Of a stretch of 64,000 nt of DNA, positions 4,958 to 41,500 are shown one piece after another. The DNA comes from Candidatus Latescibacterota bacterium (GTDB taxonomy: Bacteria > Latescibacterota > UBA2968 > UBA8231). The stretch lies in contig OZ242005.1 in NCBI GenBank assembly GCA_965204725.1, positions 5,248,001-5,312,000 on the forward strand, given 5' to 3'. The first letter of the stretch is position 1. The number at the start of each line of letters is the position of its first letter. The notes under the pieces are model-generated. The model saw only the letters and a list, made by a program, of their open reading frames with translations. It made no database searches and was not told the DNA's origin. The translations under genes and the position numbers were made by a program.

Positions 4958-4979
4958 GCCTTCGAGAGGAGAGTTTCCC

Positions 4980-6497: not shown

Positions 6498-6524
6498 CGG
6501 CTCGCGCTGCCCGCGTCCCATTTA

Positions 6525-7631: not shown

Positions 7632-7869
7632 GGTCTCCTCCGGCGTTTTGGGTGGGGCTATAAGGGGACTGCCGTCTGGCGACAGTGAATGGAGCATAAC
7701 TCGCAGCGATGGGTGACGCAACGCATTAGGGGTTGGGGGGGTAGCTCATTGACGGCTTCGATGTCAAAATGTTGATTAGGAAGTCGTCCAACAGGCCGCC
7801 GCGTTGCCTCCATCGCAGAGGTCCGAATGCTCAATACAACCCCTACCCATGTTGCCACCCCCGTTTGAT

Positions 7870-9786: not shown

Positions 9787-9840
9787 ACTACCCTGCGCTA
9801 GGGCCTTGTGCCCCGGCCTACCTACGAAAGGGAACCAACC

Positions 9841-10116
9841 ATGCAGCAACCCCCCGAAGTCAACCCAGATCCCGTGCAAGTAGAGTTATCCAAGCGGTTA
9901 GACAGCTTTGAGCACCATCTCGACCGCATAGAGACCAATCAGCGCGAGGACAACGCCCAATTGCGGCAGGACAACGCCCAGTTGCGGCAGGACATGCGGC
10001 AGGACAACGCCGAGATTCACCGCCGCTTAGACGCGCTCAACGGCCGCATCTATTGGGTTATTGGAACGCAGATCGCGCTTATGGGCCTTTTGTTCGCCGC
10101 CCTGAAACTGACCTAA
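9841..10116 (+). CDS. Small coiled-coil protein with C-terminal TM anchor
   Basis: ATG 9841 after GAAAGGGA; heptad DNAQLRQ repeats, hydrophobic tail IYWVIGTQIALMGLLFAALK. Confidence 0.7.
   Translation: MQQPPEVNPDPVQVELSKRLDSFEHHLDRIETNQREDNAQLRQDNAQLRQDMRQDNAEIHRRLDALNGRIYWVIGTQIALMGLLFAALKLT
9949..10011 (+). repeat. 21-bp in-frame tandem repeat (2 full plus 2 partial units)
   Basis: GACAACGCCCAATTGCGGCAG / GACAACGCCCAGTTGCGGCAG / GACATGCGGCAG / GACAACGCC. Confidence 0.9.
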
Positions 10117-10134
10117 TTGACCCCCTCCGCTGAG

Positions 10135-12054: not shown

Positions 12055-12196
12055 TCCACCTCTATCCCATGCAAGTAGAATCGAGAACTCGGCCCTCTTT
12101 TGGCCCAACCCCTTCACTTGGCTTATTATTTGTAGGGAACCCCTGATCAAGTCGGTTTGCTAAAAAACCATCCTAATTGAAATTGAAGAGGAACCA

Positions 12197-13618: not shown

Positions 13619-13624
13619 GTCCAA

Positions 13625-14227
13625 TCAGTCGAGTTGCTTCAACGAGACGATTCGCAGCCCATTGACTTCTTCCAACACCTCGGTTTTATAGGGTTTCGTC
13701 AAAGACATTTCCGGCGGGTACAAAGACATCATAACCACGCCTCCTTCCGCCAAATAGCGCGGTGCCTCTTCGAGAAAACGGCGCAGCAATTCCATCCTTT
13801 GTTTCTTGACCAAGAAGTACACGATGGCGATGACGACGCGGTTGTTGCGCGGCATCAGGGACTTTATGAACTCCAACGGTGCCGCAGGAGCCGAGGTGTG
13901 CCCCAGAGGAGGATTGAAAACAATCAGATCAAATAGACCGGAGACGCCGCTGAACAGGTCGCTGTACTTGAACTCCAGTTCTAGGTCGTTTGCACGAGCG
14001 TTGCCGTTTGCACACTGGAGCGCGGTGCTGTTGACATCGACCCCCATGCTCTGCCAGCCGCAAGACCTAAGATATAGCGCGATGAAGCCGGTTCCGGTGC
14101 CAATGTCGAGGGCTGTCTCGCCCGCTTGCCGCCCCGCGTGGTTCGCCATACTAAGCGTATCGGGGCCAACCCGGGAGACCCCGGGCGAGTTGTTGACGAG
14201 AATGTCGTTGAATTCCTTGTATTTCAT
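13625..14227 (-). CDS. Class I SAM methyltransferase, HemK/MTS-like
   Basis: LDIGTGTG, SDLF, FDLIVFNPP motif IV. Confidence 0.85.
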   Translation of the reverse strand: MKYKEFNDILVNNSPGVSRVGPDTLSMANHAGRQAGETALDIGTGTGFIALYLRSCGWQSMGVDVNSTALQCANGNARANDLELEFKYSDLFSGVSGLFDLIVFNPPLGHTSAPAAPLEFIKSLMPRNNRVVIAIVYFLVKKQRMELLRRFLEEAPRYLAEGGVVMMSLYPPEMSLTKPYKTEVLEEVNGLRIVSLKQLD

Positions 14228-14294
14228 AAGAGCCTTTCTTGGCGACTGCCGCTAGGCGGCCGAGGAGGTTTACCCGCGCCTGTATCCCAGCCCA

Positions 14295-25759: not shown

Positions 25760-26436
25760 TCAGTTTAGATGGCGGCCGATGCGGCGGCTTATTGCGTCGT
25801 AGCTCAATCCCCGCTCGTGGATCTGGGCGATCTCGTGGACGATCTGCTTTTCCTTGAAGACGAGTATCCGGCCGGCCAAGCCGATGATCTCCGGCATGTC
25901 CGACGAGATCAAAATGATGGCCTTGCCTTCTTGGGCCGCCAAATCCCAGAGCAAGCGGTGAATTTGGGCCTTGGCTTGGATATCCACCCCAACAGTCGGC
26001 TCATCGACGATCAGGATATCGCAGCCGGCCGCCAGCCACTTGCCCAAGCTGACCTTCTGCTGATTGCCGCCGCTGAGGTGGCCTACTTCTTGGTCCAAGC
26101 CCGTCGTGCGAATATCCAGCGCGGCGACCATGGCCTGCGCGGCTTGGGTCTCGGCCCGGTCGTCAATCCGGCGCGTGAACTTGCCGACGATCCGCTCCCA
26201 TATTGTAATGCCGAGATTGGTGCGAACGGCTGAGTCCAGCAGCAGGCCCTCTTCTTTGCGGTTTTCGGTTACGTAGGCCATCCTGTGTTGGTACAGGCTG
26301 TCGGCCACCGAGCCGATCCGCGCTTTGACGCCGTGGATATAGACGGCACCCCGCTCGGCCGGCTCGGCCCCGACCAAGCCGTACAAGCCCAAAATCTCGC
26401 CCGCGTAGAGCGAAAAGCTCACGCCGTGCGCTCCCG
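25760..26436 (-). pseudogene. 3' half of a sugar ABC ATPase (RbsA/MglA-like), 5'-truncated with internal deletion
   Basis: VSFSLYAGEILGLYGLVGA, TENRKEEG, LSGGNQQKV, VDEPTVGVD, ISSDMPE; first NBD missing; the usual GRTEL...FG segment after GLVGA is absent. Confidence 0.8.
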
Positions 26437-27732
26437 TCAACAAGCGGTCATTAGGCCCGCCTGATACCCGCGCCTTACCTCGCGGCAGAACCTTTCGTAG
26501 TCGTTCAGAGATACGGGCCGGTAATGGGCTAAATCGTTGCGGATCTGCCGCGACCAACGCGCTAGGTGGGTCCACCGCCGTTCCCGCTCGAGCTTCGGGC
26601 AGTTCCACAGCAGCGATTCGAGATGGCCCCACTGACAGGCAAAGGGCGTATCTCGCACGGCCTGACGCTCGGTGTCAAGGTCCGGTTCTTGCCACTTATA
26701 GGGCCAATCTCGTCCATACAACCCGTTGAGGTGGGCGCATAACGCCAATCGCGCTTCGTCAATTTGGGGCAACAGCAGGCCAGCCTGACCGCGCCATAAG
26801 CGATGGTCTAAGGCTTCTTGTCGGTTGAGTTGGGCCAAGACCGCGCTGTGGCGTTGTAGGCCGTGTTCTAGCGTCCAATGCACCAGCCCCCGGGCCCAGA
26901 CTTGATACAAAGGAGCGGGCAAGGGCCAGCCCTCCTGCCGCGTCCCTTCTCGGGGCAGACCTTCCATGGACAACGCTTCTAACTCGGCCTTTGTCCAGCC
27001 GCGCTCCTCGGCAAAGGCCCGCAGCACGTCCGCCAATTCGGCACCCGTGCTGTACGCCTGAACCCATAAATAATCACCCAAGCCCAGATCCGACCCCGCA
27101 ATGGCTGGAATCACCCACTCTTTCCAACGGCTCAGGGGCGTAGAATCCTGCGCGGAGGCCAATTGACACAATAGCCGCATTTCCAAGGTCGTCGGGATGC
27201 CCCACCAGACGTGGACCGCCAACAATACATTGGTCGCGGGCGGCGGGGGCGGCACCTTCGACGCTGGGGCGAGGAGACACAGGGCCGGCAGCATTTTGGC
27301 CCGCTCTTCGTCGGTCGAGCGCCGGCCTTGGCACACTTCAGCCCACTGCACCATAAATTGCAGCCAACGCCTTCGGTCGTCTTCAGTTAGCTCGTCAAAA
27401 CCATCGAGAAACAGGACTTCGGGCAAGCCTGCTCGTCTCAGGAGATTCTCTACAGTGCGCGGCGCGGTGGAAGCACCCCAATCTATGCCCAGCGTTTGGG
27501 CCAGAGCCGCCGCAAGCATTTGCGCATCTAACTGGGGCGCGAAAACCTCATGGACCCGCAAATCCCGATATTCCAAACCGTTCAACAAATTCGACCGCAG
27601 CAGGCTGGGGTCCACTCCTTCGGGCAGCAGGCCCAACACGCTGCGACCCGACCGCAAGTCGTCCAATATCCGATCGAGCAGTTGCCGGACCGTGGGCATC
27701 TGTATGAGGGAGGTCGCCAGTCCCAAGCTCAT
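26437..27732 (-). CDS. Degenerate P-loop/STAND-like protein with C-terminal HEPN-like RNase motif
   Basis: Walker-B-like VLFLDGFD without intact Walker A; RNDLAH (RxxxxH) at 26541-26524; ATGA-coupled to upstream gene. Confidence 0.6.
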   Translation of the reverse strand: MSLGLATSLIQMPTVRQLLDRILDDLRSGRSVLGLLPEGVDPSLLRSNLLNGLEYRDLRVHEVFAPQLDAQMLAAALAQTLGIDWGASTAPRTVENLLRRAGLPEVLFLDGFDELTEDDRRRWLQFMVQWAEVCQGRRSTDEERAKMLPALCLLAPASKVPPPPPATNVLLAVHVWWGIPTTLEMRLLCQLASAQDSTPLSRWKEWVIPAIAGSDLGLGDYLWVQAYSTGAELADVLRAFAEERGWTKAELEALSMEGLPREGTRQEGWPLPAPLYQVWARGLVHWTLEHGLQRHSAVLAQLNRQEALDHRLWRGQAGLLLPQIDEARLALCAHLNGLYGRDWPYKWQEPDLDTERQAVRDTPFACQWGHLESLLWNCPKLERERRWTHLARWSRQIRNDLAHYRPVSLNDYERFCREVRRGYQAGLMTAC

Positions 27733-30700
27733 AGCGCACCAACCACCCGTCCCAAAACGGACTCAACTTGGTACGCCCCGTCCCTTTTTTCCAAGCATCC
27801 CAAGCGGTACAAAAGCTCCACCGCCGCCTTGCAGTCCTCCAGCGAGAGCGGCGGGTCGCCTTTAACAAACTCGACCAGATCCGCTAAGTCCTCTTCGGCG
27901 ACCTTCGATTTGTACTCCACCAACGTCTGTAAGACTCGGAAAGGCTCCTCCTCCTCTAAAGAAGAGAAGCCAATCTGCTGTACCAACTTGAAGCCTAACT
28001 CCGACTTAGGAAGGTCCATCTCCTCGCCGAGCGTTTTCACGCAATCCCTAGGGTCGTTGTGGTCGCCGCACCGGCGCAAAAGTTCGTCTAGCAACAAAGA
28101 CCATCCCCCGGTCGCTTGCAGGACCGCCCCGCAACACTCGGGCAAATCCAGTTTCCCCGCTTGGTCCAACCGCTGCCGAATTCCCTCTTCATCCCAGCGT
28201 CGCAGAAAAATCAGGTCCACTTGGTCTTCCAAAGCGGTGCATTTAGGAGACTTCAGCCAAGCCCAAGAAGTGGCCGGCTCAAAAAGAAAAACCACCTGTC
28301 GAGGCCGTTGGCGTTTTTTGTTGTGGCTATTCAGGACGAGCCAAACAAATTGGGCCATATTGCCCCCAGTGCCGCGGACCAGACGATAGAACAACGGCTG
28401 CTGTCTGCGGGCGGACGCATCCAACCACGCGACATCCTGATTCGGCCATTCCATGCCACCCATGCGCTTTAAGGCTTGTTTTAATACCTCCAGCCCTAGG
28501 GCTTGGGAGCCAAAAATTAGGCTCACCCCCGATTGTTCGGCTTGCAGCAAACGGCCTTCCTGCACCAGCGTCAAGGGGCTGTACAGGCGTTTTGAGGCAT
28601 TCAATAATATATGCTGGCTATGGGGTATCGATTGGAGCGGCTGAAATGTATCGAGCTCCAGCAGGCGGTTCTCGATGTCCTCTTCAGTGCCCATCAGGCG
28701 GACCAAATTGGGGCTACGCAGCGAGTACTTGTTTTCTGAGTTGCACAACAAGATGCCTAAGCCGACCATTTCGCCGAGCAACCCCCGCAGGGCTTCGAGG
28801 TCAAGGTCGTTGAAGCCTTGCGGGCACCACTCTCGGGCCAATTTTTGCAGCTCGGCCACGCTAAACGACCGAGTATAGCTGTCCGGGGTCTCTTTTTGTT
28901 CGTGAATCATGGCCCAAGCAATGCACTGATAGCGGGAATCGAGCGCGAGCGTCCAATCGAGCCGTTCGCGGATGACCTCCCGCGTTTGCGGCAAGCGATA
29001 TACCGCATCTACATCGTCGAGTTGCACTTTATAGGGAGGGCTGTGCATTTGGTTTTGGGCTTGGAGGCGATGCAGCAGTTCTCGACAGAAATACTGAATC
29101 AAGCCCGGATGGTAGTTGGTGTACGACAGGACTTTGAGCACCGTAGTTTCGTCGGCAAAGCGATAGCCCAACGTCTTCAGGGGCTCGCGCACCAACTCCC
29201 GAGCCGGACGAGCTTCGAGGGGGCCGACCAGTAGGTTGTGGCCGAAATGGGCGAGGGGCTGATTGGCGATGTTCTTGAACCGCTGGACATCGTGCAGCCC
29301 GGCAAACACCACTCTGAAGCGCGACTTCGTGTCTTGGATCAAGGTTCGCAAGCGGTCGACTTCTGGGAAACCCTTTTTGGCATCGGCGTCGAGAAAGCGA
29401 TCGGCTTCGTCGAACAAGACCAGAACCTGCCGCTGCGGCGACTCCGCCATCGATCGCTCAATGCGTTTGATGATGTTGTCGGGTTGGTTCGCCGTTACGC
29501 TGCTTTTTATGAGTTGGTGTTTCTTAAAGCCCTCGCGCAACTTGCTCCACAACGAAGCGGGCTGTTCGCCTGTAAGGGGATCGCCCACCAGCTTGATGTC
29601 CTCGACCCAAGCGAATTGATCGCGGTCGGGCTGGTGAAATTCGCGCTCTACTTGGCGCAGCAAGGCGGACTTGCCCAACTGACGCCCGCCGAATGCGATC
29701 GCACCGCCCGCGCTTTGCAACTGCCGCACCATATCGCCGCGGCCATAGAACATCTCGGGCGGGACATTGCCCGCTTGGAACGGCGTGTAGGGATTGAGGG
29801 CCGCGTAGGGCAGGCTACAGCGCAGGAAGGCGGGAAGGCGCGTGTCGTCGAATCGGGCCAAAAATACCAGCAGGACTTCGTCGAGCACCACCAAAGCCAA
29901 GCCGCGTTCCCGCGCTCGCCGAGCTAAAGAGTCCCGGCGGTGCGAGGTCAAGCGTCCGAGGAAAAAAATCAGCACGGTCTTGGTATCCAGCCCCAGATCG
30001 CGCAAGAAAGCTCCGACCGTGTCGGCACCGGGCCGTTCCCACAAACATACCACGTTATACCGGCCATGCGCTTGCGAACCCAACTGCGGAATCGGTCGGG
30101 CCAAGTCGCCCGCCGAGGCTTCCACCGCGCAATAGACCCCATCTTGGCCCTGCTCTTCGACCCGGACCGCTGCCTCTCCTGCCGATACGTGAAAACCCAA
30201 GAACTCCAACAGGACCCGGACGGGCCGGTGGATTTCTTTGTCTCGTTCCGGTTGGCGTTTGAGCCGGTGCCAAACGCGCAGGGCTGCGACGGCCTCGTCT
30301 CGACGCACTCGCGGCAATTCGCCAAACTGTACGCCAGCCCAAGTTTGGCCTTGCTCGATCAACTCGGACAGTTGATCAACCCCCTTGTCGCTAAGCCCGG
30401 ATTCGATGCCGCGACAAGCGTCTTGAAACTCCTCAAAGACATCGCGCGTGTCGGTGGGGGTAAACCACTCGCTCTTCCATTCGCTTTCGCCTTGGGCAAC
30501 TCCCCGCAAGAGGGCCAAACTCTCTTCCACGACCCGGGTATCGCACTGCCGGATCGCCCGGCGAATAAAGGTGTTGGTGGCTTCGAGCCGCTCGGGTGGG
30601 ATGCGCTGCGCTAGGCCGCGCCGCATTTTTCGCCATTGCGCCGCTAACTCTTGTAGGCGGTCGTTGAGCTTTGCTGTCAAATCCCGTTCAATGTTCTCTA

Positions 30701-32873
30701 ATCGCTGGAATAGCGGTTGGATGTGGATGGAATTTTCAGCATCGGGCAATTCGGCATTGAGGCGGTCGCGTTCTTCTTCGGAAAGCAGGCCATCCACGAT
30801 TCCCTGCTCAATGGCCCCTTGCACTTTGGCGACTTGATCCGCGAGCGCTGCTTGGGCCCCTTTGAGATCTTCGTCGAGCCGATTTTCATATTCTCGGCGG
30901 GCCTCATCGCCCTCCAATGCCTCCAACGCATTCAGCGATGCGTCGGTGAAGCGAAAATCCAAGCCTTCAACTCGCAGCGTACAGGCCGCGCGCAGGGAGC
31001 GTTCCTCGGCTAGCGATTGGCACAACGCCTTCGCAATATCGGCTTCGCGGTCCGCTGCGGGATGGCCCTCGTTGGTCAGGGAGGCTTCGGGGATCCACAA
31101 CAAGCGGTGGGCCAAAGCTCCCTCTAGAGAATCGCTTTCCCGCTTCATCCATGCGTCGCCCTCAACATCGGGTTGTTCCTCTATGCCTAGCATCCCTAGT
31201 ACTTGGCCTACGGCCTGGTGCAAGACGCGACCCAAAGCGGCTTCTTCTTGGCGTGGGTCGGCCTGCATGCGGTCGAGTTCAGCCCGGACTCCGGGCAAGG
31301 CCCCCCGGACGCGATCGAGCAGGTCGTTCACGTGCTCGGACCACCAATTTCCCTTGCTGTCGAGGGCCTGCTGCTGCTCAATGAGGGAACACCAGCGGCC
31401 GGCCAGCCCCACGGCCTCTTCGACGCTGCGAACCAACTGATCAATGGGCCGGCCCATGATGGGTTTCGGGCGGCTATGTCCCAACTCTTGGTCCATCTGG
31501 TGGATCAGGGCTACAATCTGCCTGCGCTCCTTAAAATCGCGCATGTGCTGCCGGACCCGATTGACTTCGGCGGCCTTGTTTTCGATTACCGGCGTGAGTA
31601 GGAGGTGTAACGCCCCGTTCTGGCTCACCAAGTGGTGCAACACGCGGGTTGCCCCCTTAAACTTCAACCGGCTGTCCTTATTGGTCGCCAAGAAGCGACG
31701 GGCCTGCCCAACGGTATTTTCAATGATCTCTTTGTGGTTTTTCTCTCCTGTTACTTCCTGCAGATCAGCGTCCTGCAAAGCATGGCCCGCCGCTGCAAAG
31801 GTGCGGACCGCATCGGCTAGCCCACCCAGCGCGGGATTGATTTCATCCCTTTGCGGGAGCCAGCCGATCAAACCCGTGGTCTGCGGGGCAATCAAGCTGG
31901 GGCGCAGGGCCGCGGATAAGCCCAGCCACTGCTCGAAAGGGGTGTTTTGGGGCGCCCACTCTGAGGCAATTTCCAAAACATCTAGGACGAACTTATCGGT
32001 ATCGTTTTCCAACCAGCGCGAGCCTTGAAGAACGGCAAGCAGTTGGGGGGCAACGGGTATGTCGCGGCCTGCTGCTTGCAAAGAGCGAGCCAGCCAGTAC
32101 GCCCCGGCCCAATCCCCGGCGGCCAAGAGGCTCCACCCTAACGATACCCAGTTTTCATCGCCATCCTCTCCTTGCAACAAGGTCGCGGTCACCTCCCGGA
32201 CCGAGCGCAAAGGCCGCGGCTTTGCAGCGGCGGGCGGGGGCGTAGGCTTGCGTTCTTCTCGCGAGACTTTTTCCTCGGGGACTACCTCTTTGGCTGGGGT
32301 GACGGCTTCTGTGGAATCAGGGGCATCACTAGAGGGACTAGGCGGTTCTGCGGGCGGTTGGCCATCCTCATCCTGTGGGGGCGTTGGGGCCGGCACGGAA
32401 AAGCCTCGGTTGAGTTGGTCCAACCCAGCGCTAATCCGATCTTCCACGGCCTCCATATCCGCCCGGTGCTGGCGGGCTTCTTGGACGTTTTGGGGGACCT
32501 GCTGGTCTAAGGTGCGGCGTTGGGCCAAGTGCTCCAGCAAGACTCTCACCCGGTCCGTCTGTTCGGGGACTTGCTCAATGGGGCAATGGTTCGCTTGCCA
32601 GTGGGCTAGGTCTGAATCGCTGAAATTGAAAAACGCGAGATCGCTCTCGTGGTTTTCCCGCAGTTGCGTCAGTTCCTGTTGGAGCCGCTGGACCCGCCCC
32701 GCCTCGTCCCGTTCTTGGTGCTTCTGCGAAGCCACCTGCTGGACTTGGTCTATAAACTCTTGGATTACTTCCCATTCTGACGCCTCGGCCGGCCATTGGC
32801 GCATCTCTTCAATTAGACTAGCCCACTGAGTTTTCTGAAAGAGTTCCGGGGCTCGCGCTTTTTCAGCGGGCAT
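27729..32873 (-). CDS. 1714-aa STAND-class NTPase (coiled coil, Pro linker, helical region, NTPase, wHTH, second degenerate NTPase)
   Basis: NPY...FYGR, Walker A GGRQLGKS, Walker B VLVLFDEAD, sensor FAG, GxP-like NYHPGLIQ; later IFGSQALG and ATGGWSLLL as decayed second module. Confidence 0.8.
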   Translation of the reverse strand: MPAEKARAPELFQKTQWASLIEEMRQWPAEASEWEVIQEFIDQVQQVASQKHQERDEAGRVQRLQQELTQLRENHESDLAFFNFSDSDLAHWQANHCPIEQVPEQTDRVRVLLEHLAQRRTLDQQVPQNVQEARQHRADMEAVEDRISAGLDQLNRGFSVPAPTPPQDEDGQPPAEPPSPSSDAPDSTEAVTPAKEVVPEEKVSREERKPTPPPAAAKPRPLRSVREVTATLLQGEDGDENWVSLGWSLLAAGDWAGAYWLARSLQAAGRDIPVAPQLLAVLQGSRWLENDTDKFVLDVLEIASEWAPQNTPFEQWLGLSAALRPSLIAPQTTGLIGWLPQRDEINPALGGLADAVRTFAAAGHALQDADLQEVTGEKNHKEIIENTVGQARRFLATNKDSRLKFKGATRVLHHLVSQNGALHLLLTPVIENKAAEVNRVRQHMRDFKERRQIVALIHQMDQELGHSRPKPIMGRPIDQLVRSVEEAVGLAGRWCSLIEQQQALDSKGNWWSEHVNDLLDRVRGALPGVRAELDRMQADPRQEEAALGRVLHQAVGQVLGMLGIEEQPDVEGDAWMKRESDSLEGALAHRLLWIPEASLTNEGHPAADREADIAKALCQSLAEERSLRAACTLRVEGLDFRFTDASLNALEALEGDEARREYENRLDEDLKGAQAALADQVAKVQGAIEQGIVDGLLSEEERDRLNAELPDAENSIHIQPLFQRLENIERDLTAKLNDRLQELAAQWRKMRRGLAQRIPPERLEATNTFIRRAIRQCDTRVVEESLALLRGVAQGESEWKSEWFTPTDTRDVFEEFQDACRGIESGLSDKGVDQLSELIEQGQTWAGVQFGELPRVRRDEAVAALRVWHRLKRQPERDKEIHRPVRVLLEFLGFHVSAGEAAVRVEEQGQDGVYCAVEASAGDLARPIPQLGSQAHGRYNVVCLWERPGADTVGAFLRDLGLDTKTVLIFFLGRLTSHRRDSLARRARERGLALVVLDEVLLVFLARFDDTRLPAFLRCSLPYAALNPYTPFQAGNVPPEMFYGRGDMVRQLQSAGGAIAFGGRQLGKSALLRQVEREFHQPDRDQFAWVEDIKLVGDPLTGEQPASLWSKLREGFKKHQLIKSSVTANQPDNIIKRIERSMAESPQRQVLVLFDEADRFLDADAKKGFPEVDRLRTLIQDTKSRFRVVFAGLHDVQRFKNIANQPLAHFGHNLLVGPLEARPARELVREPLKTLGYRFADETTVLKVLSYTNYHPGLIQYFCRELLHRLQAQNQMHSPPYKVQLDDVDAVYRLPQTREVIRERLDWTLALDSRYQCIAWAMIHEQKETPDSYTRSFSVAELQKLAREWCPQGFNDLDLEALRGLLGEMVGLGILLCNSENKYSLRSPNLVRLMGTEEDIENRLLELDTFQPLQSIPHSQHILLNASKRLYSPLTLVQEGRLLQAEQSGVSLIFGSQALGLEVLKQALKRMGGMEWPNQDVAWLDASARRQQPLFYRLVRGTGGNMAQFVWLVLNSHNKKRQRPRQVVFLFEPATSWAWLKSPKCTALEDQVDLIFLRRWDEEGIRQRLDQAGKLDLPECCGAVLQATGGWSLLLDELLRRCGDHNDPRDCVKTLGEEMDLPKSELGFKLVQQIGFSSLEEEEPFRVLQTLVEYKSKVAEEDLADLVEFVKGDPPLSLEDCKAAVELLYRLGCLEKRDGAYQVESVLGRVVGAL

Positions 32874-32885
32874 ATCGCATCCTCG

Positions 32886-32915
32886 ATTCTAGGTCGTTGG
32901 GTTTACACCTGTAAA
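32886..32915 (-). promoter_or_regulatory. Candidate sigma70 promoter with palindromic operator upstream of the STAND gene
   Basis: Minus strand TTTACA-18 nt-TAGAAT; perfect inverted repeat TTTACA-CC-TGTAAA at 32902-32915 covers the -35. Confidence 0.45.
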
Positions 32916-32969: not shown

Positions 32970-33983
32970 CTATTCGGCGGGCGGGCGCAAGTACTTGGTC
33001 TCCAACTCGCCCATAATCTGCGCGGTGATGGCCCGGACTTCGTCCGCAAAGGTATCGACGTTGTCCTGGGTCACCAGCACCGTGCCCGAGTTGACGAAGT
33101 AGTGCTCGGGGTTGGCTTGCCAGCCGTCGAGCAGGTAGCGCAAGAGGGCGCACGTGATGTAACCGTGGCCGTAGGGGTTTTGCGACAGGGTCGCGTCGAT
33201 GGCCCCTTGGCGGACCGCGTCGAGTACCACCGAGTCCGTGTCGATGCCGACGAAGTGGATGCGCTTGTTGCCCGGGGTCTGGTTCCATTCGGATAGGATC
33301 GTCGCCGCGGCCACGGTCGGGGTGTACCCCGTGCAAATCACGCCGTCGATCTCCTCGATCCGCGCCGAGAGCGCGTCTTGGATTTTGGCCGTGCTGGTCT
33401 CAATCGACTCCATGCCGGCGATCTCTTGGACGATCTGGACCGCGGGGTATTTGGCCACCGCCGCTTCGACGCCTTCCTTGCGCAGGATGGTGTTGGGATC
33501 TTCGACCAACTCTAGCACGTTGAGGATCTGGCCCTCGCCGCCCATAAAGCCGATCAGGGCCTCGGTCGCCTCCATCGCCGCCTGCCGGACGTCGGTCGCC
33601 ACGCAAAACGAAGCCGGCGTCGGCAGCGTCGTCGGCGCGCCATAGCTGACGACGTAGGCCCCGTTTTGCACCAATTCCTCGTAGAGTCCGTTGGCCGCGC
33701 TGGCGTCGGCCGGATAAAGCGAGAAGCCCTTGTAGCCCTGAGCCGCCAGCGGCTCGACGTTGGCGTTTTCATTGTCTTGGGTCCAGTTTTGGCCGATCTG
33801 ACGCTTGATCTTGATCCCGGTGTCGCGCTCGTAGCCGATCACCCCTTTTTGCACCTCTTCGACGTAGGGATGGACCATCAAGGCGTACCAGACGATTTTT
33901 TTCTCCGAGGGCGCGTCGGCCGATTGGCCGGACCCGCCGCACCCCGCGACGACGAGCGCGGCGAAAGTTAGTAGTAAGCGCAT
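32970..33983 (-). CDS. Sugar ABC substrate-binding lipoprotein (RbsB/periplasmic binding protein type 1)
   Basis: Lipobox VAGC, HPY, VGID, SQNPY.HGY, VTQDNVD; AGGAG RBS. Confidence 0.9.
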   Translation of the reverse strand: MRLLLTFAALVVAGCGGSGQSADAPSEKKIVWYALMVHPYVEEVQKGVIGYERDTGIKIKRQIGQNWTQDNENANVEPLAAQGYKGFSLYPADASAANGLYEELVQNGAYVVSYGAPTTLPTPASFCVATDVRQAAMEATEALIGFMGGEGQILNVLELVEDPNTILRKEGVEAAVAKYPAVQIVQEIAGMESIETSTAKIQDALSARIEEIDGVICTGYTPTVAAATILSEWNQTPGNKRIHFVGIDTDSVVLDAVRQGAIDATLSQNPYGHGYITCALLRYLLDGWQANPEHYFVNSGTVLVTQDNVDTFADEVRAITAQIMGELETKYLRPPAE

Positions 33984-34976: not shown

Positions 34977-37550
34977 TCAGTACGCGACCGAGATCGTCCT
35001 GAGTACATGGGCATCTTTGACCTGCGCTCCCTCAATGTCGGTATCCACGCTTAGCTGCACCACATACAGCCCCGGCGGCACCACGCGCCCGCCGTCGTCC
35101 CGGCCATCCCACTCAATCTCATAGGGGCCGGTGCTAAAGGGGCGCGCTTGCGCGAGACGCCATATTAGGCGGCCTCCCAAATCGTAGATCTCGGCCGCTA
35201 CCGGGCTATCGTCGCCGACCCGCACGACATTGAAGGCAAAGACCGTGCGGTCGTTGATCCCGTCGCCGTTGGGCGAAAAGGCCGCTGGCCGCACCGCCAC
35301 ATCCATGAGCAGGGCGTTCTGCTCCACAGCCGCGACAATCGTCGTGGTGTTGCCGATGACCTGCGGGAGGGCCTCCCCGGGGTCAATCCGCTGCCAAGCA
35401 CCGCCATCTGCGCCGCTATTGCGTAGGGCGGCCTGCAACACCGCGCCGGTGACGAAAAGCGCCGTCTCAAAATCCAGCCTCAGCACTTCGGTCGAGCCAT
35501 TGGGCTGGATCGCATCAAAGCGCACGTGCAGGGAGTCGCGGCCCGTAGGCAGGACCTCGACCCCGGGCAGCGCGTTGGGCACCGTCTCGCCGTCGAAATC
35601 CGCCACTTGACCACCGTACAGGCCCACCATGGCTAGCTCCATGTTCGACGGCGCCAACAACAACAACTCGTCAAAACCCGAATCGCGGCGGTCAAACTCC
35701 GGCCGCACGTACAGGGAAAACGGCCGCTGTACCCCGAGTTCTTCTACCTCGAATGGGCCGATCTCGCCCAACAGACGCTGCGCCACGGGATTGGCGAAAT
35801 TGAGATGGACCGAGCGCAGCGTTGGGCTGAGCTCCGGGTCTTCCGACAGCAAGGTCGCCTGCACCGTGAGGAACTCCCGCGGCGATGGCGAGGAAATCGG
35901 GCTGCCGGCCGGATTCTCATAAGGCGCGCTCCAATTGCCCCAATCGCTGCCGGGCACTTGCTCGGCGACGATGTCGCCCCGGAACAGGGACAGCAGTTTG
36001 TTGTATTCGCTCTCGGTCACTTCGGTGCCGTCGTTTTTGAAATAGTGTAGTATCTCGCCCAATTCACTGCCCGTGCGCGTCTGAATCTGCACTTGGGTTC
36101 CGGGGGGCGTGTCGGCATCCCACTCAATCGACAACAGGTTGCGGCTGCCGCCCAAGCGAATGAGGTCGGACCGTAGCGAAACCTCCGGTTGGAAGCCTTC
36201 GCCGTAGAATTGCAACTCGGCTATATCGGCCGTGCGGGCACCAATGGCATTCAAGGTCCACTGAAAGCGGCCAAACCGCGCCTTGATCGGCTCGAACTCC
36301 TCGCCTTCAAACCGCGAGGTGGGGCGCGACCCCAGCGACGCCTTGGTGGTCCATTGGAGGCTGCCGTCGGGCGCGAGGGTGCCGTCGGAAAAATCCATTC
36401 GGTAGCTGGGGAACAAACCGCCGTTGTAAACCAAGCGGAAGGTATCGACCCAATAAAACGAACCCAGGTCGAAGACCAGCTCCAGCTCGGGATCTGCCAC
36501 CGCCGAGGAGACCCCGTAAAAGATGCGATTGAAGGTCGCCAAGTCGCCATCGACGAACTTGGTCAGGGCCAGCGGCTGCTTTGCATTGGTCGAGATGACG
36601 CCGCCGCGCGCGAGGATGCCGGCGGTTAGCTCGTCCCCTTCGTTCCAGACCTCCAGCTCGGCCAAGCGGGGCAATTCCCGGCGAAAATAGCGGACGCTGC
36701 CCCGGCGGTCCGCGTCCAATATGTCGTACAGGTCTGAGTCAACGGGCACCTCGCGGCCATCGGGCTGGCGCTTGAAGTACTGAATTGCCCCGCGCGTCTC
36801 TTCGCTGAGGGCGTCGTATTCAGCGGCCGATACTTCCGTGCCGAGCATCCCGTCGGTATCTGTGACCAAAATTTGCACAAAGCGCACGGCCGCGGCCTCG
36901 ACATTGGGCTGTTCGTTGGTCAGATCGACCGTAAAGACCCGCTGGCTCTTGTTTTCGCTCAAGGTCCGCAACACGGTCTTAAAGGCCGGGTTTTCGCTGT
37001 TTTGCAAGCGCGCTGGCTTGAGTCCATCGGAGATGAGCACCTCAAACAAGAGAAAGGGATCGCCCATACCCTCCTCGACGAAGCGCACCACGAGTTCTTG
37101 GGCAAAAACCACGCGGCCCAAGTCGATCACAAACCACCACTGCGAAGCCAAGTCGCGGTCGCCGGCCGGCGGATCGGGCTGCCAATAGGTGGCGAGGTCG
37201 CCGTCGAGCAGGTTGACCACATCGGCGACATTGGAGCCGCCCTTGACAGCGTCGGAGAGGACGATCTCAGCCGGCTCTTTGCCGCCGAGGGACGCCGGCG
37301 GATTAAAGCGCAGATAATCGACAATGTCGAACACGGCGTTGGTATTCTTTTGAATGCGCCGAGAGCGCACTTCTCCGTCTGGAGAAATCGTCAAGGTCCC
37401 CGGGGCAAATTCCCAGTTTTGCCAATGGTTGCGGCCATTGATTACGACCTGATTGCCGCCGACCCGGTGGCCGGCCGACTGGGCGCACACGGCGACCCCG
37501 GCCAATGAGACCGCTAGCCCCATGCAAAGGGCGCGTCCTAAGATAGTCAT
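34977..37550 (-). CDS. Secreted protein, two discoidin/F5-8-like domains plus C-terminal FlgD-Ig/CTD domain
   Basis: Signal peptide; LLDGDLATYW, IDLG, AELEVW / FDLG, AELQFYG; FSPNGDGIND...IYDLGG...WDGRD..G..VPPGLY; ends SVAY. Confidence 0.7.
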   Translation of the reverse strand: MTILGRALCMGLAVSLAGVAVCAQSAGHRVGGNQVVINGRNHWQNWEFAPGTLTISPDGEVRSRRIQKNTNAVFDIVDYLRFNPPASLGGKEPAEIVLSDAVKGGSNVADVVNLLDGDLATYWQPDPPAGDRDLASQWWFVIDLGRVVFAQELVVRFVEEGMGDPFLLFEVLISDGLKPARLQNSENPAFKTVLRTLSENKSQRVFTVDLTNEQPNVEAAAVRFVQILVTDTDGMLGTEVSAAEYDALSEETRGAIQYFKRQPDGREVPVDSDLYDILDADRRGSVRYFRRELPRLAELEVWNEGDELTAGILARGGVISTNAKQPLALTKFVDGDLATFNRIFYGVSSAVADPELELVFDLGSFYWVDTFRLVYNGGLFPSYRMDFSDGTLAPDGSLQWTTKASLGSRPTSRFEGEEFEPIKARFGRFQWTLNAIGARTADIAELQFYGEGFQPEVSLRSDLIRLGGSRNLLSIEWDADTPPGTQVQIQTRTGSELGEILHYFKNDGTEVTESEYNKLLSLFRGDIVAEQVPGSDWGNWSAPYENPAGSPISSPSPREFLTVQATLLSEDPELSPTLRSVHLNFANPVAQRLLGEIGPFEVEELGVQRPFSLYVRPEFDRRDSGFDELLLLAPSNMELAMVGLYGGQVADFDGETVPNALPGVEVLPTGRDSLHVRFDAIQPNGSTEVLRLDFETALFVTGAVLQAALRNSGADGGAWQRIDPGEALPQVIGNTTTIVAAVEQNALLMDVAVRPAAFSPNGDGINDRTVFAFNVVRVGDDSPVAAEIYDLGGRLIWRLAQARPFSTGPYEIEWDGRDDGGRVVPPGLYVVQLSVDTDIEGAQVKDAHVLRTISVAY

Positions 37551-37628
37551 AGCGTTTCCCGTTGTGTTCTAAGGTGTTTTAACTCGTTCAGGGTACGGAA
37601 ATTGCATATCGTCCGCCAATCATTCCCG

Positions 37629-39554
37629 TCAATATACTAGGGCGGTCACGGCCTGCCGCTGGGTCGTTCCCTGATCGGTCTCTACCCGCAAGCTGACCAC
37701 ATACAACCCCGGCGGCAACAACCCACCCCGCTCGTCCCGACCATCCCATACCCCCACATACCGACCACTGCCCAACCAAGACGAATCCACCAAACCCACC
37801 CGACGACCCGACACGTCATACACCCAACACACCAACGACGACAAACCCGAAAGATTCAACACATCGCAGCCGATGGCAACTTCGTCGTTGATCCCATCGC
37901 CGTTGGGACTAAACACCCCCGGCTCCACCGACAACGAACCCAAAGGACCCGTGCCCAACCCGGTCAAATCCACCCGCAGCCCCGCGCTCGAAGGCTCCTC
38001 ATCCGCATCGCCTCCGGCCAATGCCTGCGGCACCTCGTGCGGATACGCGCTGTTGAAGACCCGACCCGTAAACACCGTGCCAAACTGGAACACCGACGCA
38101 TAGAAATCGACTTCGAGCACCTCGTCGGTGCGCTGGGCATCCATCTGCGGCACGGCCAGCACCACTCCACTGGCGTCTTGTTGGAGGACCTCAAAAGCCA
38201 CCGGCTGCCCCGACAGACGCACCGCATCCACCCGCTCCACCCGCGCCGGCGTGTCGATAGCCAAGCGGTCAAAGCCCAAGTCCCCGCTCGCCATCGACGC
38301 CTTGACCTTGTAGGTGAACGCTGCCGCCGCGCCCGGTGCCACCACCGAGGGCACGATCTCGGCGACCGCTTGTTGCGCCACCGGCGGGATCGACACCGCC
38401 AGCATCACCCAATCGAGCCGACCGCTGGCGCGCTGCTCAGAAGTAAAGTCGGCGCGCACCTGCACAAACTGGCGCGGTCCCGCGCCGGCGATGGCCCCTT
38501 CGCCGGCGGCAAACGCTTGGGCGGTACTCCAGAACGTCCACGCCGCTGTGTCGTGGGTGATGCCCGCCTGCGCCCCCCGCGCCAGCTTGTTGTACGACGC
38601 CAAGCGCAAGGGATGGCCCCGCTCGTCGAAGCGGGTGCGCTCGCCGCCGCGAAAGGTGTAGCGCCAGTACGTATTCGGATCGGCGTCGTGGCCGCTGCGC
38701 GTGCTCAACGCCAGCGTCGCCCCCTCGTCCTGCTGACCCGCCCACGTCAGGCGACCGAGGCTGGCAGGTGCGCCCAAGTCAATCACATTCGACACATAAC
38801 TGGCAAACGGGGCAAAGCCGCGACCGTAAATCTCCAACTCCGCAATCTCCCAAATACTCCCCGTGTTCTCCTTAGCGTAAAACAAAACGTAGCGGATGGG
38901 CTGATGCGGGAACTTCAGGTCGATGACGGGCTGGGTGTTTTCCACCACGTCATGCACAATATCAAAATCAAAATAAAATCCAGCGGCCCCCAAATTCTCT
39001 TCCCGCGTCCCATCCTTGAGCGGGTTGCCGTCGTTGATGCCGATTCTAAACTGCTGCACAAAGCGATCGGTGCGGTGCTGGTCGCGGGGAAAAAAGCGGA
39101 TGCGGTCGAGGAGGAGCGGCGCACCCAAGTCAAACGTCAGGGCCTTGATATACGGCCAATGCACGGCATAGCGCCCATCGCCCAGAAAGGCGGTCTTTAC
39201 GTCGCCATCAAACATCAAGGCATCGGTTTCCGTATGGGATAGCCAGCCATTCCAAGCAAACCTGAGCACTTCGCCCCCGCGTTCCTCAATCAGCGGGGTC
39301 AGGTTGAGGTCCGGGCTGAGCGACTGCGGGCGAATCGAATCCGGATCGAGCTGGATTAGGCTTTCACGGCCGTGTTGGGCCGCGTCAATCTCGCTCCAGC
39401 CGATTTGCACGAATTTGTATGGAACGTCCAGCGCTGGAGGCGGTAGGCTCTCGCCGCCGATCCGATAAATAGTCAGCCCGCTCGCGGCCGGCGCGTGGAG
39501 CAGGGAAGCGGCGAAAAACAGCGAGCCGACCCAATGTTTTGTCGGGCAAAACAA
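37629..39554 (-). CDS. Secreted discoidin plus FlgD-Ig/CTD protein (LTIYRIGG subfamily)
   Basis: MFDGD, FDLG..LLLDRIRFFPR, WEIAELEIYG, FSPNGDGIND, WDGRD; ends ALVY. Confidence 0.72.
   Translation of the reverse strand: MFCPTKHWVGSLFFAASLLHAPAASGLTIYRIGGESLPPPALDVPYKFVQIGWSEIDAAQHGRESLIQLDPDSIRPQSLSPDLNLTPLIEERGGEVLRFAWNGWLSHTETDALMFDGDVKTAFLGDGRYAVHWPYIKALTFDLGAPLLLDRIRFFPRDQHRTDRFVQQFRIGINDGNPLKDGTREENLGAAGFYFDFDIVHDVVENTQPVIDLKFPHQPIRYVLFYAKENTGSIWEIAELEIYGRGFAPFASYVSNVIDLGAPASLGRLTWAGQQDEGATLALSTRSGHDADPNTYWRYTFRGGERTRFDERGHPLRLASYNKLARGAQAGITHDTAAWTFWSTAQAFAAGEGAIAGAGPRQFVQVRADFTSEQRASGRLDWVMLAVSIPPVAQQAVAEIVPSVVAPGAAAAFTYKVKASMASGDLGFDRLAIDTPARVERVDAVRLSGQPVAFEVLQQDASGVVLAVPQMDAQRTDEVLEVDFYASVFQFGTVFTGRVFNSAYPHEVPQALAGGDADEEPSSAGLRVDLTGLGTGPLGSLSVEPGVFSPNGDGINDEVAIGCDVLNLSGLSSLVCWVYDVSGRRVGLVDSSWLGSGRYVGVWDGRDERGGLLPPGLYVVSLRVETDQGTTQRQAVTALVY
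37632..38870 (-). repeat. ~1.24 kb near-identical repeat, copy 1 (copy 2 at 41504..42742)
   Basis: 3' halves of the two genes align almost base for base at offset 3872. Confidence 0.9.
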
Positions 39555-39576
39555 GGCGGATGGCTCCCAATCGCGC

Positions 39577-41490
39577 TTAGTACGCTAGCGCGATGACGGC
39601 TTGCCGGGCGGCTGGCCCCTTGTCGGTCTCGACGCGGACGCGCAGAATGTACAACCCCGGCGGCACCTGCTCACCGCGCTCATCCCGCCCGTCCCACGCC
39701 CCTACGTACCGGCCGCTGGACGTCCAATCCGAACCCACCACGTTCAATAAACGGCCCGACAAATCGTACACCGACGACTCCACCTGCACCGGCCCCACCA
39801 AGTTGAGCACATTGCACTCGATCCGCACCGCGTCGTTAATGCCGTCGCCGTTGGGGCTGAACACCGACGGCATCAGCACCAAGTCGCCGATGGTCTGCGC
39901 CCCCAAGCGGGTCAACCCCACGCTCAACCCGTTGCTCTCGGCGAGCGCGTCCACATCCCCAGACTCTAGGCTTTGCGGCACCTCTCGCGGCTGCTCGCTG
40001 TTGGAGATCCGCCCGGAAAACACCGTGCCGAACTTAAAGATCGCGGTCTGGAAATCCACCTCGATGAGCTCCTCGGTGCGCTGCGCGTCAATCTTCGGTA
40101 GCTGCACGGCAAAACCGGCCTCGTCCAGCCGCATCACCTCAAAGGCCACCGGCTCGCCCGAAATCCGCACCGCATCCACGCTCTGGGCGCGGACCGGCGT
40201 GTCAATGGCTAGCCGATCAAAGCCCAAATCGTCGCTGGCCAAGGTCGCCCGCAGCTTGTAGGTGAAGGCCGTAACCTCCCCCGGCGGCACGGCCGCTGGC
40301 GATATTTCGGCGACCGCTTGCCGCGCCACCGGCGGGATCGACACGGCAAACTGCACCCAATCCAACTGCCCACTGGTCTCTCGGCTCGACGAAAAGTCCG
40401 CACGCAACTGCACGTAGCGCTGGGGGCCATCCCCGATCAACGCCCCCTGCCCGGCGGCGAAGTCGTAGCCGCCCCAGAACGCCCAATTCTCCGTGTCGTG
40501 GGTGATGCCCGCCTGCTCGCCGCGCGCCAGCTTATTGTACGAGGCCAGCGTCAGCGGGCGGCCCCTAGCGTCAAAGCGGGTGCGCTCGCCGCCGCGGAAG
40601 GTGGTCCGCCAATAGATGTTCGGGTCTGCGTCCAGCCCGCTGCGCATACTGAGGGCCACGTCGGCCTCCTCGGCCTCGCGTCCGGCCCACGTCAGTTCCC
40701 CCAAGCTCGCCAAGGCCCCTAAGTCGATCACATTGGACACGTAGCCCGCAAAGGGCGCGAAGCCATTGCCGTAGATTTCCAACTCGGCGATCTCCCAGAT
40801 GCCGCGCGTATTTTCTGCCGCCGAGAAGAGCAACCGCCGCACGGGTTCGGCGGGCAGGGGCAAGTCGATGACGGCTTCGGTATTTTCGGTTATGTCGTAG
40901 ATGATGTCGAAGTCCAACTCGCTGTTCCGCCGCCCAATGAGGAACTCGCGGGAACCATCCTTGAGGGGATCGCCGTCGTTGATGCCGATCTTGAAGGTCT
41001 CTACAAAGCGGTCGGTCAGGTGTTTGGTGCGCGGGAAAAAGCGAATCCGCTCCAACAGGAGGGGCGCACCAAAATCAAAGGCCAAGTACTTCTCCGGTGG
41101 CCCGTGCGAGGCAAAGTGACCGTCGCCGAGGTAAATGGTGTTCGGGTCTTGGTCGAACATGAACAAATCGTCCGCCTGAGGCGGCCCCCAGCCAATCCAC
41201 ACCAAGTTTAGAACTTGGCCGCCTTGCTCTTCGATGATCGGCACGAGATTGACCGCTGAATCGAACCGTTGGGGGCGCAAAAAATCCGGGTCGAACTCCA
41301 GCAACTCCGCACGGCCGTGCTGCGCCGCATCAATATCGCTCCAACGGATTTGCACGAATTCGTACGGCGCGTCCAACTCCGGGGCTGGCAGGCTCTCGCC
41401 GCCGATCCGATAGATCGTCAGCCCAAGTGCCGGACCGACCGCGCCGCCCCACAGGACTGCCCATACACACGCCGCTAAACGCCCAGCCAT
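39577..41490 (-). CDS. Secreted discoidin plus FlgD-Ig/CTD protein (LTIYRIGG subfamily)
   Basis: Same motifs as neighbours; ends ALAY. Confidence 0.72.
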   Translation of the reverse strand: MAGRLAACVWAVLWGGAVGPALGLTIYRIGGESLPAPELDAPYEFVQIRWSDIDAAQHGRAELLEFDPDFLRPQRFDSAVNLVPIIEEQGGQVLNLVWIGWGPPQADDLFMFDQDPNTIYLGDGHFASHGPPEKYLAFDFGAPLLLERIRFFPRTKHLTDRFVETFKIGINDGDPLKDGSREFLIGRRNSELDFDIIYDITENTEAVIDLPLPAEPVRRLLFSAAENTRGIWEIAELEIYGNGFAPFAGYVSNVIDLGALASLGELTWAGREAEEADVALSMRSGLDADPNIYWRTTFRGGERTRFDARGRPLTLASYNKLARGEQAGITHDTENWAFWGGYDFAAGQGALIGDGPQRYVQLRADFSSSRETSGQLDWVQFAVSIPPVARQAVAEISPAAVPPGEVTAFTYKLRATLASDDLGFDRLAIDTPVRAQSVDAVRISGEPVAFEVMRLDEAGFAVQLPKIDAQRTEELIEVDFQTAIFKFGTVFSGRISNSEQPREVPQSLESGDVDALAESNGLSVGLTRLGAQTIGDLVLMPSVFSPNGDGINDAVRIECNVLNLVGPVQVESSVYDLSGRLLNVVGSDWTSSGRYVGAWDGRDERGEQVPPGLYILRVRVETDKGPAARQAVIALAY

Positions 41491-41500
41491 ATTCGGCTCC

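Follow-up and report, generated by a model that had tools for sequence, protein, structure and literature searches.

In STAND nucleoside triphosphatases (NTPases), a helical domain that bears a GxP-type motif, and then a winged helix, come after the NTPase domain. Avs (AVAST) proteins, which stand among the STAND (NLR-like) defense proteins, are single polypeptides with a fused effector. In BREX, an active STAND/ORC-Cdc6-type ATPase (BrxC) is found together with a separate, inactive STAND protein (BrxB), and in the DUF499 systems (Hma/BREX-related type 1) a Swt1-type HEPN domain is attached to the ATPase and has been proposed to be a suicide effector, according to the parts of the BREX survey drawn on here (PMC12839542). 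Here we describe two adjacent genes, the large gene and the small gene, in a 64,000-nucleotide (nt) stretch (the window) of the genome of a Candidatus Latescibacterota bacterium (assembly GCA_965204725.1, contig OZ242005.1, positions 5,248,001 to 5,312,000 of the forward strand). A reading made from the sequence alone had proposed that they form an undescribed antiphage system in which a giant tandem-STAND NTPase is coupled to a dead NTPase fused to a HEPN ribonuclease (RNase). Following up this proposal computationally, we conclude that the pair is, on balance, probably a conserved, horizontally mobile two-gene conflict (defense) module with a STAND-type sensor/switch and a trans-encoded predicted RNase effector; the defense role, the RNase activity, and the binding of the two proteins to each other are what we infer from sequence.

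Domain architecture of the two proteins

The two reading frames share a 4-nt ATGA overlap at a junction that reads ...GCGCTATGAGC... (Table 1). The 1714- and 431-amino-acid (aa) open reading frames (ORFs), the overlap, and every motif quoted in the sequence-only reading were in place. The large protein consists of an N-terminal helical region, a Pro-rich linker (aa ~160-225), a long helical region, a live NTPase module, and a module that appears to be decayed. Within the live module, NPYTPF (aa 1027-1032) and FYGR (1042-1045) are followed by the Walker A motif GGRQLGKS (1062-1069), the Walker B motif LFDEAD (1153-1158), and YHPGLIQ (1254-1260). Residues G1062-S1069 (GGRQLGKS) and D1155-D1158 (DEAD) were invariant in all 25 large proteins of an alignment (A2) made from 25 of the 120 listed, which was conserved over its full length with a mean column identity of 45%. 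Against Pfam, the window protein matched AAA_22 (E 3e-5, 24.7 bits, under the 27-bit cut-off); among the 25 homologs, matches at E ≤ 1e-3 were to AAA_22 (23 proteins), AAA_16 (10), TniB (4), nSTAND1 (2), nSTAND6 (1), and ATPase_2 (1). Intact Walker A and Walker B motifs in a P-loop domain that matches STAND-type profiles are required of a STAND/ORC-Cdc6-type NTPase, and the large protein has them. YHPGLIQ and, after it, LRSPNLVRLMG stand in the order expected of a GxP motif and a winged helix, to which they may correspond.

When 134 to 136 sequences aligned to the A2 profile were compared with hhalign, residues 1405-1714 aligned collinearly with residues 1015-1400 over 251 columns (P 9.6e-4, probability 22%), pairing GSQALG with GGRQLGKS, VVFLFE with VLVLFD, and TGGWS with YHPGLIQ; the comparison based on the smaller alignment, of 25 sequences, gave a P of only 0.034. 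That aa ~1405-1714 represent a decayed duplicate of the live NTPase module is moderately supported by these comparisons. The sequence-only reading had seen a complete STAND module followed by a second, decayed one; the live Walker motifs bear out the first, and the profile alignment bears out the second to that moderate degree. The preceding residues, 1-1010, comprise a coiled-coil-like start, the linker (24% Pro over aa 156-230), the long helical region, and a conserved block at 925-1010. No family could be assigned to them with Pfam or, for aa 225-1010, with the ESM Atlas, which gave no usable match, and a sequence search of the PDB with the large protein returned no match. A PD-(D/E)xK nuclease at aa 925-1010 was considered and dropped because the candidate acidic residue is not conserved, being N in the window protein and lying outside the invariant columns.

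Relatives of the large protein are numerous, with more than 1770 homologs of aa 1000-1714 at E ≤ 1e-3 among 8000 scored candidates. They are mostly 1700-2100 aa long, those in other phyla are 43-50% identical over this region, and all are unnamed or “hypothetical.” The C-terminal half also had 28 distant matches on plasmids. On the Brasilonema plasmid pBOCT2 (L118 3348-10217), the NTPase and C-terminal region ends a 2289-aa protein and a helicase follows; on an Azospirillum oryzae plasmid (L119 444-10214), it ends a 3256-aa “RNaseH domain-containing protein.” The NTPase and C-terminal module of the large protein appears, at the level of sequence, to be common to several giant-protein families.

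In an exhaustive HMMER search at E ≤ 1e-3, the small protein matched the representatives of 628 clusters formed at 50% identity (270 at E ≤ 1e-30), most relatives being ~420-430 aa long. With both proteins in large conserved families, the feature goes well beyond what chance would give. Searches of PDB sequences gave only chance-level rows with the protein itself (E 0.5 and 1.7) and none with a profile of alignment A1, which holds 44 of the 150 listed small proteins. The AlphaFold2 model based on A1 had a predicted local distance difference test score (pLDDT) of 94.5 and a predicted template-modeling score (pTM) of 0.90. For aa 1-300, Foldseek matched the model to ORC2/Cdc6 and Apaf-1 (E 1e-4 to 7e-4) and to RFC, all with low template-modeling scores, and VIA-align matched it to Cdc6 in 7jgr_G (Z 11.2, root mean square deviation 4.9, 227 aligned), to 2qen, TnsC (7mbw), and Cdc6/Orc1 (2qby) at Z 10.8, and to STAND, NLR, and Avs5 proteins at Z 8-10, with STAND proteins at 8.4-9.9. 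We examined 210 members of the family, namely, the window protein, the 150 representatives, 58 locus-derived proteins, and a second copy from the window genome. Because none of the 210 has GK[ST] at the P-loop position and the acidic residues of the Walker-B-like motif vary across the family, we take aa 1-300, as modeled, to be an AAA+/STAND-like fold devoid of nucleotide-binding motifs, i.e., a predicted dead NTPase. The missing Walker A motif agrees with the sequence-only reading; the Walker-B-like VLFLDGFD on which that reading had also remarked is present at aa 106-113, but its acidic residues are unconserved. From a shared GxP-like motif, one might guess at a common origin of all three STAND-like modules.

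The remainder of the small protein, aa ~296-431, is probably a HEPN domain. Modeled alone from an alignment (A3) of 44 sequences (the window protein and 43 of the 58 locus-derived ones), it reached a pLDDT of 96.8. In RNDLAH (aa 398-403), R398 and H403 were present in all 202 sequences that cover these columns (8 of the 210 are truncated) and N399 was present in 195 of 202, so that the RxxxxH signature singled out beforehand is indeed conserved among homologs. In the domain model, short helices separate the first long helix from a helix at residues 84-107, which ends in R103..H108; after it come a loop and the final helix (114-129). Rx4H would thus span the end of the penultimate long helix and the beginning of the loop that leads to the last one, the HEPN position. 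The Rx4-6H motif of HEPN domains is placed at exactly this point, and a polar residue (N, D, or H) typically follows its R, in the parts of the HEPN survey drawn on here (Anantharaman et al. 2013, PMC3710099); the small-protein family shows both the spacing and the polar residue. On the basis of sequence, the invariant R-N-x-x-A-H predicts a metal-independent RNase. A second invariant block, R311-x-W313-R314-x-Q316 with R328 and C332, lies in the first long helix of the domain. The nearest named clusters of the small protein in the ESM Atlas carry HEPN_Swt1 (score 0.81), which we treat as a lead only. In a wide VIA-align comparison, at least 12 of the top 50 rows for the domain were HEPN proteins at Z 4.9-6.8, several of which we take to be such partly by their titles: a Cas nuclease (9fcv, 6.8), 1wwp (6.0), Csm6 (4rgp, 5.8, and 6tug, 5.5), Roquin (4txa, 5.6), AbiF (8vz6, 5.5), the toxins 8xdj, 7ae2, and 5yep (5.2-5.5), 2hsb (5.3), sacsin (3o10, 4.9), and AbiA (8oz7, 4.9). 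The motif, the topology, and the profile and fold matches, weak and concordant, are consistent with the assignment. A search for short standalone relatives of the domain found only 6, all of them fragments of the same family.

Genuine HEPN_Swt1 domains occur in 49 of 168 genomes of the phylum at the N terminus of ~1115-aa proteins, including one in the window genome (L100, G000:C1:1918744-1919085), and one flank of such a domain (L093) shows a P-loop (GGGKTHS). These proteins, which are very common in the phylum, resemble the HEPN-DUF499 ATPases of Hma/BREX-related systems.

Gene linkage, insertion site, and neighborhoods

Two peptide patterns derived from A2 retrieved 586 relatives of the large protein from one-genome-per-species GTDB contigs, of which 80 loci were kept, and linkage was scored with an A1-based hidden Markov model at the 69 loci with at least 1300 nt 3' of the large gene. 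The small gene was immediately downstream on the same strand in 60 of these 69 loci, which come from many phyla, and usually overlapped the large gene; two further loci with less downstream room gave partial matches. The coupling of the two genes presumed by the sequence-only reading therefore holds well beyond the window. The nine loci at which the small gene was not found (L047, L068, L069, L071, L082, L083, L084, L086, and L087) carry the most distant large proteins, which are 27-31% identical. At L083 (13942-16341; Microbispora) and L084 (14101-16368; Streptosporangium), the product of the ORF overlapping the large gene's end has a coiled-coil N terminus and a metallo-beta-lactamase/beta-CASP/RMMBL nuclease; L086 has a downstream ORF equal to these in size. 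A PIN gene lies 477 nt 3' of the large gene at L071, and L069 has a 292-aa ORF of no known family followed by a BrxC/BrxD-family ATPase. Because distant loci carry other nuclease genes in the place of the small gene, the partner of the large gene appears to be exchangeable and to be a nuclease wherever it is identifiable. At L082, in an Arenicellales metagenome-assembled genome (MAG), two distant homologs of the large gene stand head to head (1654-7434, minus strand, and 8459-14491, plus strand), with no small-gene homolog nearby.

The window genome contains a second pair (G000:C1:2608150-2615225, minus strand; L136 8150-15225), encoding proteins of 2006 and 352 aa with a 4-nt overlap and flanked by housekeeping genes (MnmG, homocysteine S-methyltransferase). 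Its large protein is 26% identical over 1443 aa and keeps ..PPEMFYGR..GGRQLGKT and LLVLLDESD; its small protein is 21% identical and keeps IRLWSAQ (RLW..Q) and RNNLAH. A 914-aa metagenomic protein (P0279) joins a truncated large-protein C terminus to a small protein apparently without its first ~50 residues; as a single member that is probably an in-frame deletion or gene-call artifact, it was not used as a Rosetta-stone fusion. Complex prediction for large-protein aa 1020-1714 with small-protein aa 1-300, with alignments, scored 0.00 in both runs and speaks neither for nor against binding.

The pair is patchily distributed: a pair-type match was found in 11 of 151 sampled genomes of the phylum (10 of them strong) and in 5 of 22 of the genus. 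The binding-protein gene that adjoins it was found in 28 of 30 further genomes from the genus. We compared 16 kb around this gene in 14 same-genus genomes. In all 11 compared genomes without the pair at this place, the binding-protein gene is followed directly by a gene for a 499-503-aa two-domain ABC ATPase, and the next gene encodes a BPD_transp_2 permease in L120 and L121, the only two checked. The pair lies between the binding-protein and ATPase genes in the window and in G161. In G161, the ATPase gene beside the pair is intact, and a direct repeat of ~35 bp that comes from the binding-protein gene's 3' end (L128 ~970-1004 and 7605-7639) flanks a 6.6-kb insert, which hints at cassette integration; no integrase was found near this insert. 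In the window, comparison with the closest relative reveals a further deletion, of 870 bp, that has taken away the 5' part of the ATPase gene. What is left of the gene is its 3' 712 bp, whose product aligns over no more than 235 aa with the 503-aa ATPase found in relatives, and the permease and downstream synteny are lost at this remnant. The wrecked sugar ABC operon described in the sequence-only reading is thus real, and its intact gene order is preserved in the genomes without the pair.

In G164 and G166, the insertion lies after the ATPase gene and is of another allele, 52-62% identical; G143 and G083 belong to the same class by position. At this second junction, between the ATPase and permease genes, G121 (L120 2751-4085) and G161 (L128 9430-10632) have a separate gene for a 400-445-aa STAND NTPase (AAA_16, ATPase_2, nSTAND1), and the operon looks, from these sequences, like a hotspot for STAND-type genes. 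Since the flanks of the two alleles are ~86-93% identical in DNA while the alleles themselves differ widely, the comparison points to independent acquisition of the pair at this hotspot within the genus. In other genera of the phylum, the flanks of the pair are unrelated to those in the window. The small gene of G166 (L133 7858-10319) is split by ~1.1 kb with a 376-aa reverse-strand ORF that weakly matches an IS1 transposase (E 1.4e-6), and its large gene is in two ORFs; the large gene of G161 is split into 573-aa and 1160-aa ORFs. These splits reflect either decay or sequencing errors. No homolog of the small protein was found on 72,556 plasmids, and 2.9 million viral contigs gave only 5 distant, NTPase-only matches.

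Neighborhoods were sampled at 18 pair-bearing loci with long flanks, at which the two nearest ORFs per side were scanned (71 of 147 candidate ORFs) and a match to a PADLOC defense or candidate model at E ≤ 1e-30 was taken as a defense neighbor. At least one of the four nearest ORFs matched such a model at 7 of the 18 loci. These comprise L025 (PglZ and BrxL upstream, SIR2 and HerA downstream), L040 (a type IIG restriction-modification protein and, by Pfam, a NACHT protein), L046 (DruE of Druantia, E 6e-207, and an MzaA-like protein), L073 (an HmaB-type methyltransferase and a helicase), L031 (DUF1848, a TOTE-system domain, and a helicase with PLD), L021 (mad8-like), and L055 (PDC-M51A). L072 had a weaker HerA-like match. 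PADLOC matches in L085 (ABC-F), L027 (RsmB), and L078 (a DEAD-box helicase by an RRM protein) were set aside as apparent false positives, Pfam pointing to housekeeping proteins.

Directly 5' of the large gene in the window is a promoter-like site. The consensus scan found 3 such sites in the region versus 1.9 expected, and for this reason the scan alone is weak support; the TAGAAT..GAGGATG..ATG stretch recurs 5' of the large gene in the close relative (L128) and in the diverged allele (L133). The G+C content across the pair is 0.56-0.60, slightly below that of most neighboring kilobases (typically 0.63-0.67). Window positions 34977-41490 hold, on the minus strand, a tandem array of three paralogs (857, 641, and 637 aa) that have CHU_C type IX secretion signals together with FlgD_ig and F5/8 type C domains, and cross-matches suggest more copies near 41500-43000 and 58000-59600.

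Table 1. Features of the two-gene locus and its flanks, in window positions
Feature	Position	Strand	Basis or remark
Sugar-binding protein gene, upstream flank of insertion	32970..33983	(-)	Pfam Peripla_BP_4, E 5.5e-39
Promoter-like site TTTACA-18 nt-TAGAAT	32886..32915	(-)	Just 5' of large gene; consensus scan, 10/12 matches
Large gene, 1714 aa	27729..32873	(-)	ORF
Live NTPase module, aa ~1015-1400	28674..29831	(-)	NPY..FYGR, Walker A/B, YHPGLIQ, winged-helix-like LRSPNLVRLMG
Walker A GGRQLGKS	29667-29690	(-)	In live NTPase module
Walker B LFDEAD	29400-29417	(-)	In live NTPase module
YHPGLIQ	29094-29114	(-)	In live NTPase module
Second, putatively decayed STAND-like module, aa ~1405-1714	27732..28661	(-)	GSQALG, VVFLFE, TGGWS (GxP-like), terminal winged-helix-like YRLGCLEK
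Small gene, 431 aa	26437..27732	(-)	ORF; ATGA overlap with large gene
Predicted inactive AAA+/STAND-like domain, small protein aa 1-300	26833..27732	(-)	AlphaFold2 model, fold matches
HEPN-like helical domain, small protein aa 296-431	26440..26847	(-)	Domain model, conserved Rx4H
RLWRGQ	26785-26802	(-)	In HEPN-like domain
RNDLAH	26524-26541	(-)	In HEPN-like domain
ABC ATPase gene remnant (3' part), downstream flank	25760..26437	(-)	Single ABC_tran domain

Proposed mechanism and alternative explanations

We propose a mechanism whose steps are modeled on what holds for STAND defense proteins and HEPN RNases. The long helical N-terminal region of the large protein would act as sensor or scaffold, and the small protein would be the effector subunit, its dead AAA+/STAND-like domain serving as an adaptor that docks onto the large protein. 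An infection cue would release or drive NTP-dependent assembly of the large protein, assembly would bring the HEPN domains of small proteins together into an active site, and the resulting RNA cleavage would stop translation and so halt the invader or the infected cell. The sequence-only reading had likewise held that the N terminus senses infection, that NTPase-like domains of both proteins co-assemble, and that HEPN dimerization on activation leads to abortive infection; these steps we, too, infer. We advance more tentatively, as quite possible, the fuller claim of a widespread unnamed defense system with at least 586 relatives. It would distribute three STAND-type modules (one live, two dead) over two proteins and use the dead module of the small protein as an adaptor for a HEPN RNase, as BrxB might be used with BrxC; its effector would be exchangeable (beta-CASP in actinomycetes), and it would have landed repeatedly in one sugar ABC operon in one Latescibacterota genus.

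Several results weigh against a defense module with a HEPN effector, or against parts of it. The HEPN/Swt1 match anticipated for the end of the small protein was obtained, but every form of it is weak: 12 of 44 members match Pfam PF18731 HEPN_Swt1, at best with E 4.8e-4 and under the cut-off, the window protein itself has no Pfam HEPN match, and hhalign of the domain against 29 genuine HEPN_Swt1 domains of the phylum (P 1.1e-4, probability 57%) covers only 41 columns. Foldseek found nothing in the PDB for the domain model (best E 3.8), and the HEPN rows in VIA-align all have Z below 8, a range that the tool calls common for helical bundles. An hhalign comparison of the dead domain of the small protein with either module of the large protein was not significant (P 0.03-0.15). 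The N-terminal region of the large protein is well conserved in A2, unlike the fast-evolving sensors of many defense proteins. Finally, clustering in defense islands is a partial matter: 7 of 18 is a raw count without a background rate, 11 of the 18 sampled loci have no clear defense neighbor, and the window belongs with them, its pair being surrounded by transport, metabolic, and secretion genes to which, as the sequence-only reading had said, it is unrelated.

The HEPN-like domain need not kill. Within a defense or conflict module, it could be there for RNA binding or for sensing, or it could cut invader RNA specifically and leave the host running, the large protein carrying the main activity; ~1000 aa of that protein are without assigned function, at L073 the pair follows an Hma-type methyltransferase and a helicase, a possible DNA-level effector, and some HEPN domains bind rather than catalyze (PMC3710099, in the parts drawn on here). 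We consider this rather unlikely, for by the criterion given in those same parts the strict conservation of R, N, and H (202, 195, and 202 of 202) predicts an active RNase, and distant branches swap the partner for other nucleases while most loci share just the two genes. An addiction module, akin to a toxin-antitoxin pair, that stabilizes mobile DNA would also account for a pair that behaves as inserted DNA, with the ~35-bp direct repeat at the ends of the insert in G161, and for decayed copies such as the IS1-like insertion in the small gene of G166 and the split large genes. The large ATPase would then restrain a HEPN toxin and no phage would be sensed; HEPN toxins are common in toxin-antitoxin pairs, and HEPN-MNT structures were among the fold matches. 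An antitoxin of 1700-2000 aa with a conserved live NTPase would be very unusual, however, and such a role is unlikely for a module whose small protein is on 0 of 72,556 plasmids, whose matches in 2.9 million viral contigs are limited to 5 distant, NTPase-only ones, and which no integrase or transposase consistently adjoins.

The whole-length conservation of both proteins, the housekeeping surroundings of the second pair in the window genome, and several loci with housekeeping neighbors only would suit a housekeeping or stress RNA-processing complex unrelated to invaders, for example, one for NTP-dependent RNA quality control. We regard such a role as very unlikely for a pair that is limited to 11 of 151 sampled genomes in the phylum and 5 of 22 in the genus, is polymorphic for presence at one locus with an intact empty site, has very different alleles in closely related genomes, and frequently has defense neighbors. 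It is highly improbable that the pair does not act on its own but serves larger BREX- or Hma-like systems as an accessory or backup effector unit. It does stand directly after PglZ-BrxL in L025 and after an HmaB-type methyltransferase and a helicase in L073, and the BREX survey, in the parts drawn on here, reports backup effectors of the HEPN type as well as STAND partners that are inactive, BrxB among them (PMC12839542); yet this arrangement is confined to 2 of the 18 sampled loci, and the pair was inserted by itself, with its own promoter-like site, in the window and its relatives.

If the pair is, as we favor, a conflict module with a STAND-type switch and a trans-encoded RNase, a widespread two-gene system would be added to the prokaryotic immune repertoire, in lineages that are poorly sampled by Escherichia coli-centered screens (Chloroflexota, Latescibacterota, Myxococcota, Bacillota MAGs, and Actinomycetota). 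The pair would, moreover, be a clean case for asking how dead STAND/AAA+ modules work as adaptors that link a sensor NTPase to an effector encoded in trans, and the same question arises for BrxB in BREX. Isogenic comparisons are provided naturally by the insertion polymorphism, as the operon is found empty, with allele A, or with allele B.

Comparison with known systems

In agreement with the sequence-only reading, which did not recognize the pair as a named system, neither protein matched a system in PADLOC-DB v2.0.0 (2023), which includes Avs, BREX, Hma, Lamassu, and PDC candidates. The large protein gave only SspC (E 0.0016) and LmuB (E 0.0029), both over short stretches, and the small protein had no match at E ≤ 0.1. 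NCBIfam had nothing for either protein, no Pfam model names the pair, and Pfam had nothing meaningful for the small protein. A literature search did not find the pair named, and supplementary tables (the gene-neighborhood data of PMC12839542 and Additional file 1 of PMC3710099) could list it; the pair fits a known kind, a STAND NTPase with a nuclease effector, and an earlier description is possible.

Inactive STAND modules serve as system components in the iSTAND of ternary conflict systems, which, in the parts of that study drawn on here, have a MoxR-vWA pair at their core (Kaur et al. 2020, eLife); MoxR-vWA is absent near the pair in the window and in the sampled loci. Closer in their parts are the Swt1-like HEPN-STAND fusions (Npun_F6454, MED222_16016, and Desac_1927; PMC3710099), which combine a Swt1/Abi2-clade HEPN domain with a STAND ATPase and have a predicted conflict role. 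Compared by description only, these differ from the pair in being single proteins with TPR and S1 domains (Table 1 of PMC3710099), and in the portions of that survey considered we saw no dead ATPase adaptor in a two-gene arrangement. The likeness to BREX lies in the division of labor between BrxC and BrxB. Unlike BREX and Hma, the conserved pair comes without PglZ, methyltransferase, or helicase, and neither protein matched BrxB, BrxC, or HmaC in PADLOC; unlike HEPN-DUF499 proteins, it has HEPN fused to the inactive partner, and its large protein is 1700-2000 aa long with a different N terminus.

For both proteins, the Avs models of PADLOC gave no match at E ≤ 0.1. Compared with Avs, the effector of the pair is on a separate protein, behind a dead STAND-like domain of its own, and the large protein has a second dead module. 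The pair nevertheless shares with Avs and other STAND (NLR-like) defense proteins the coupling of a STAND-type NTPase to a nuclease effector, and Avs5 filaments (9jap, Z 9.1; 9nc9, Z 8.1) are among the fold matches of the dead domain of the small protein. By analogy with these proteins, the same logic, in which sensing leads to oligomerization and oligomerization to effector activation, would be expected here too.

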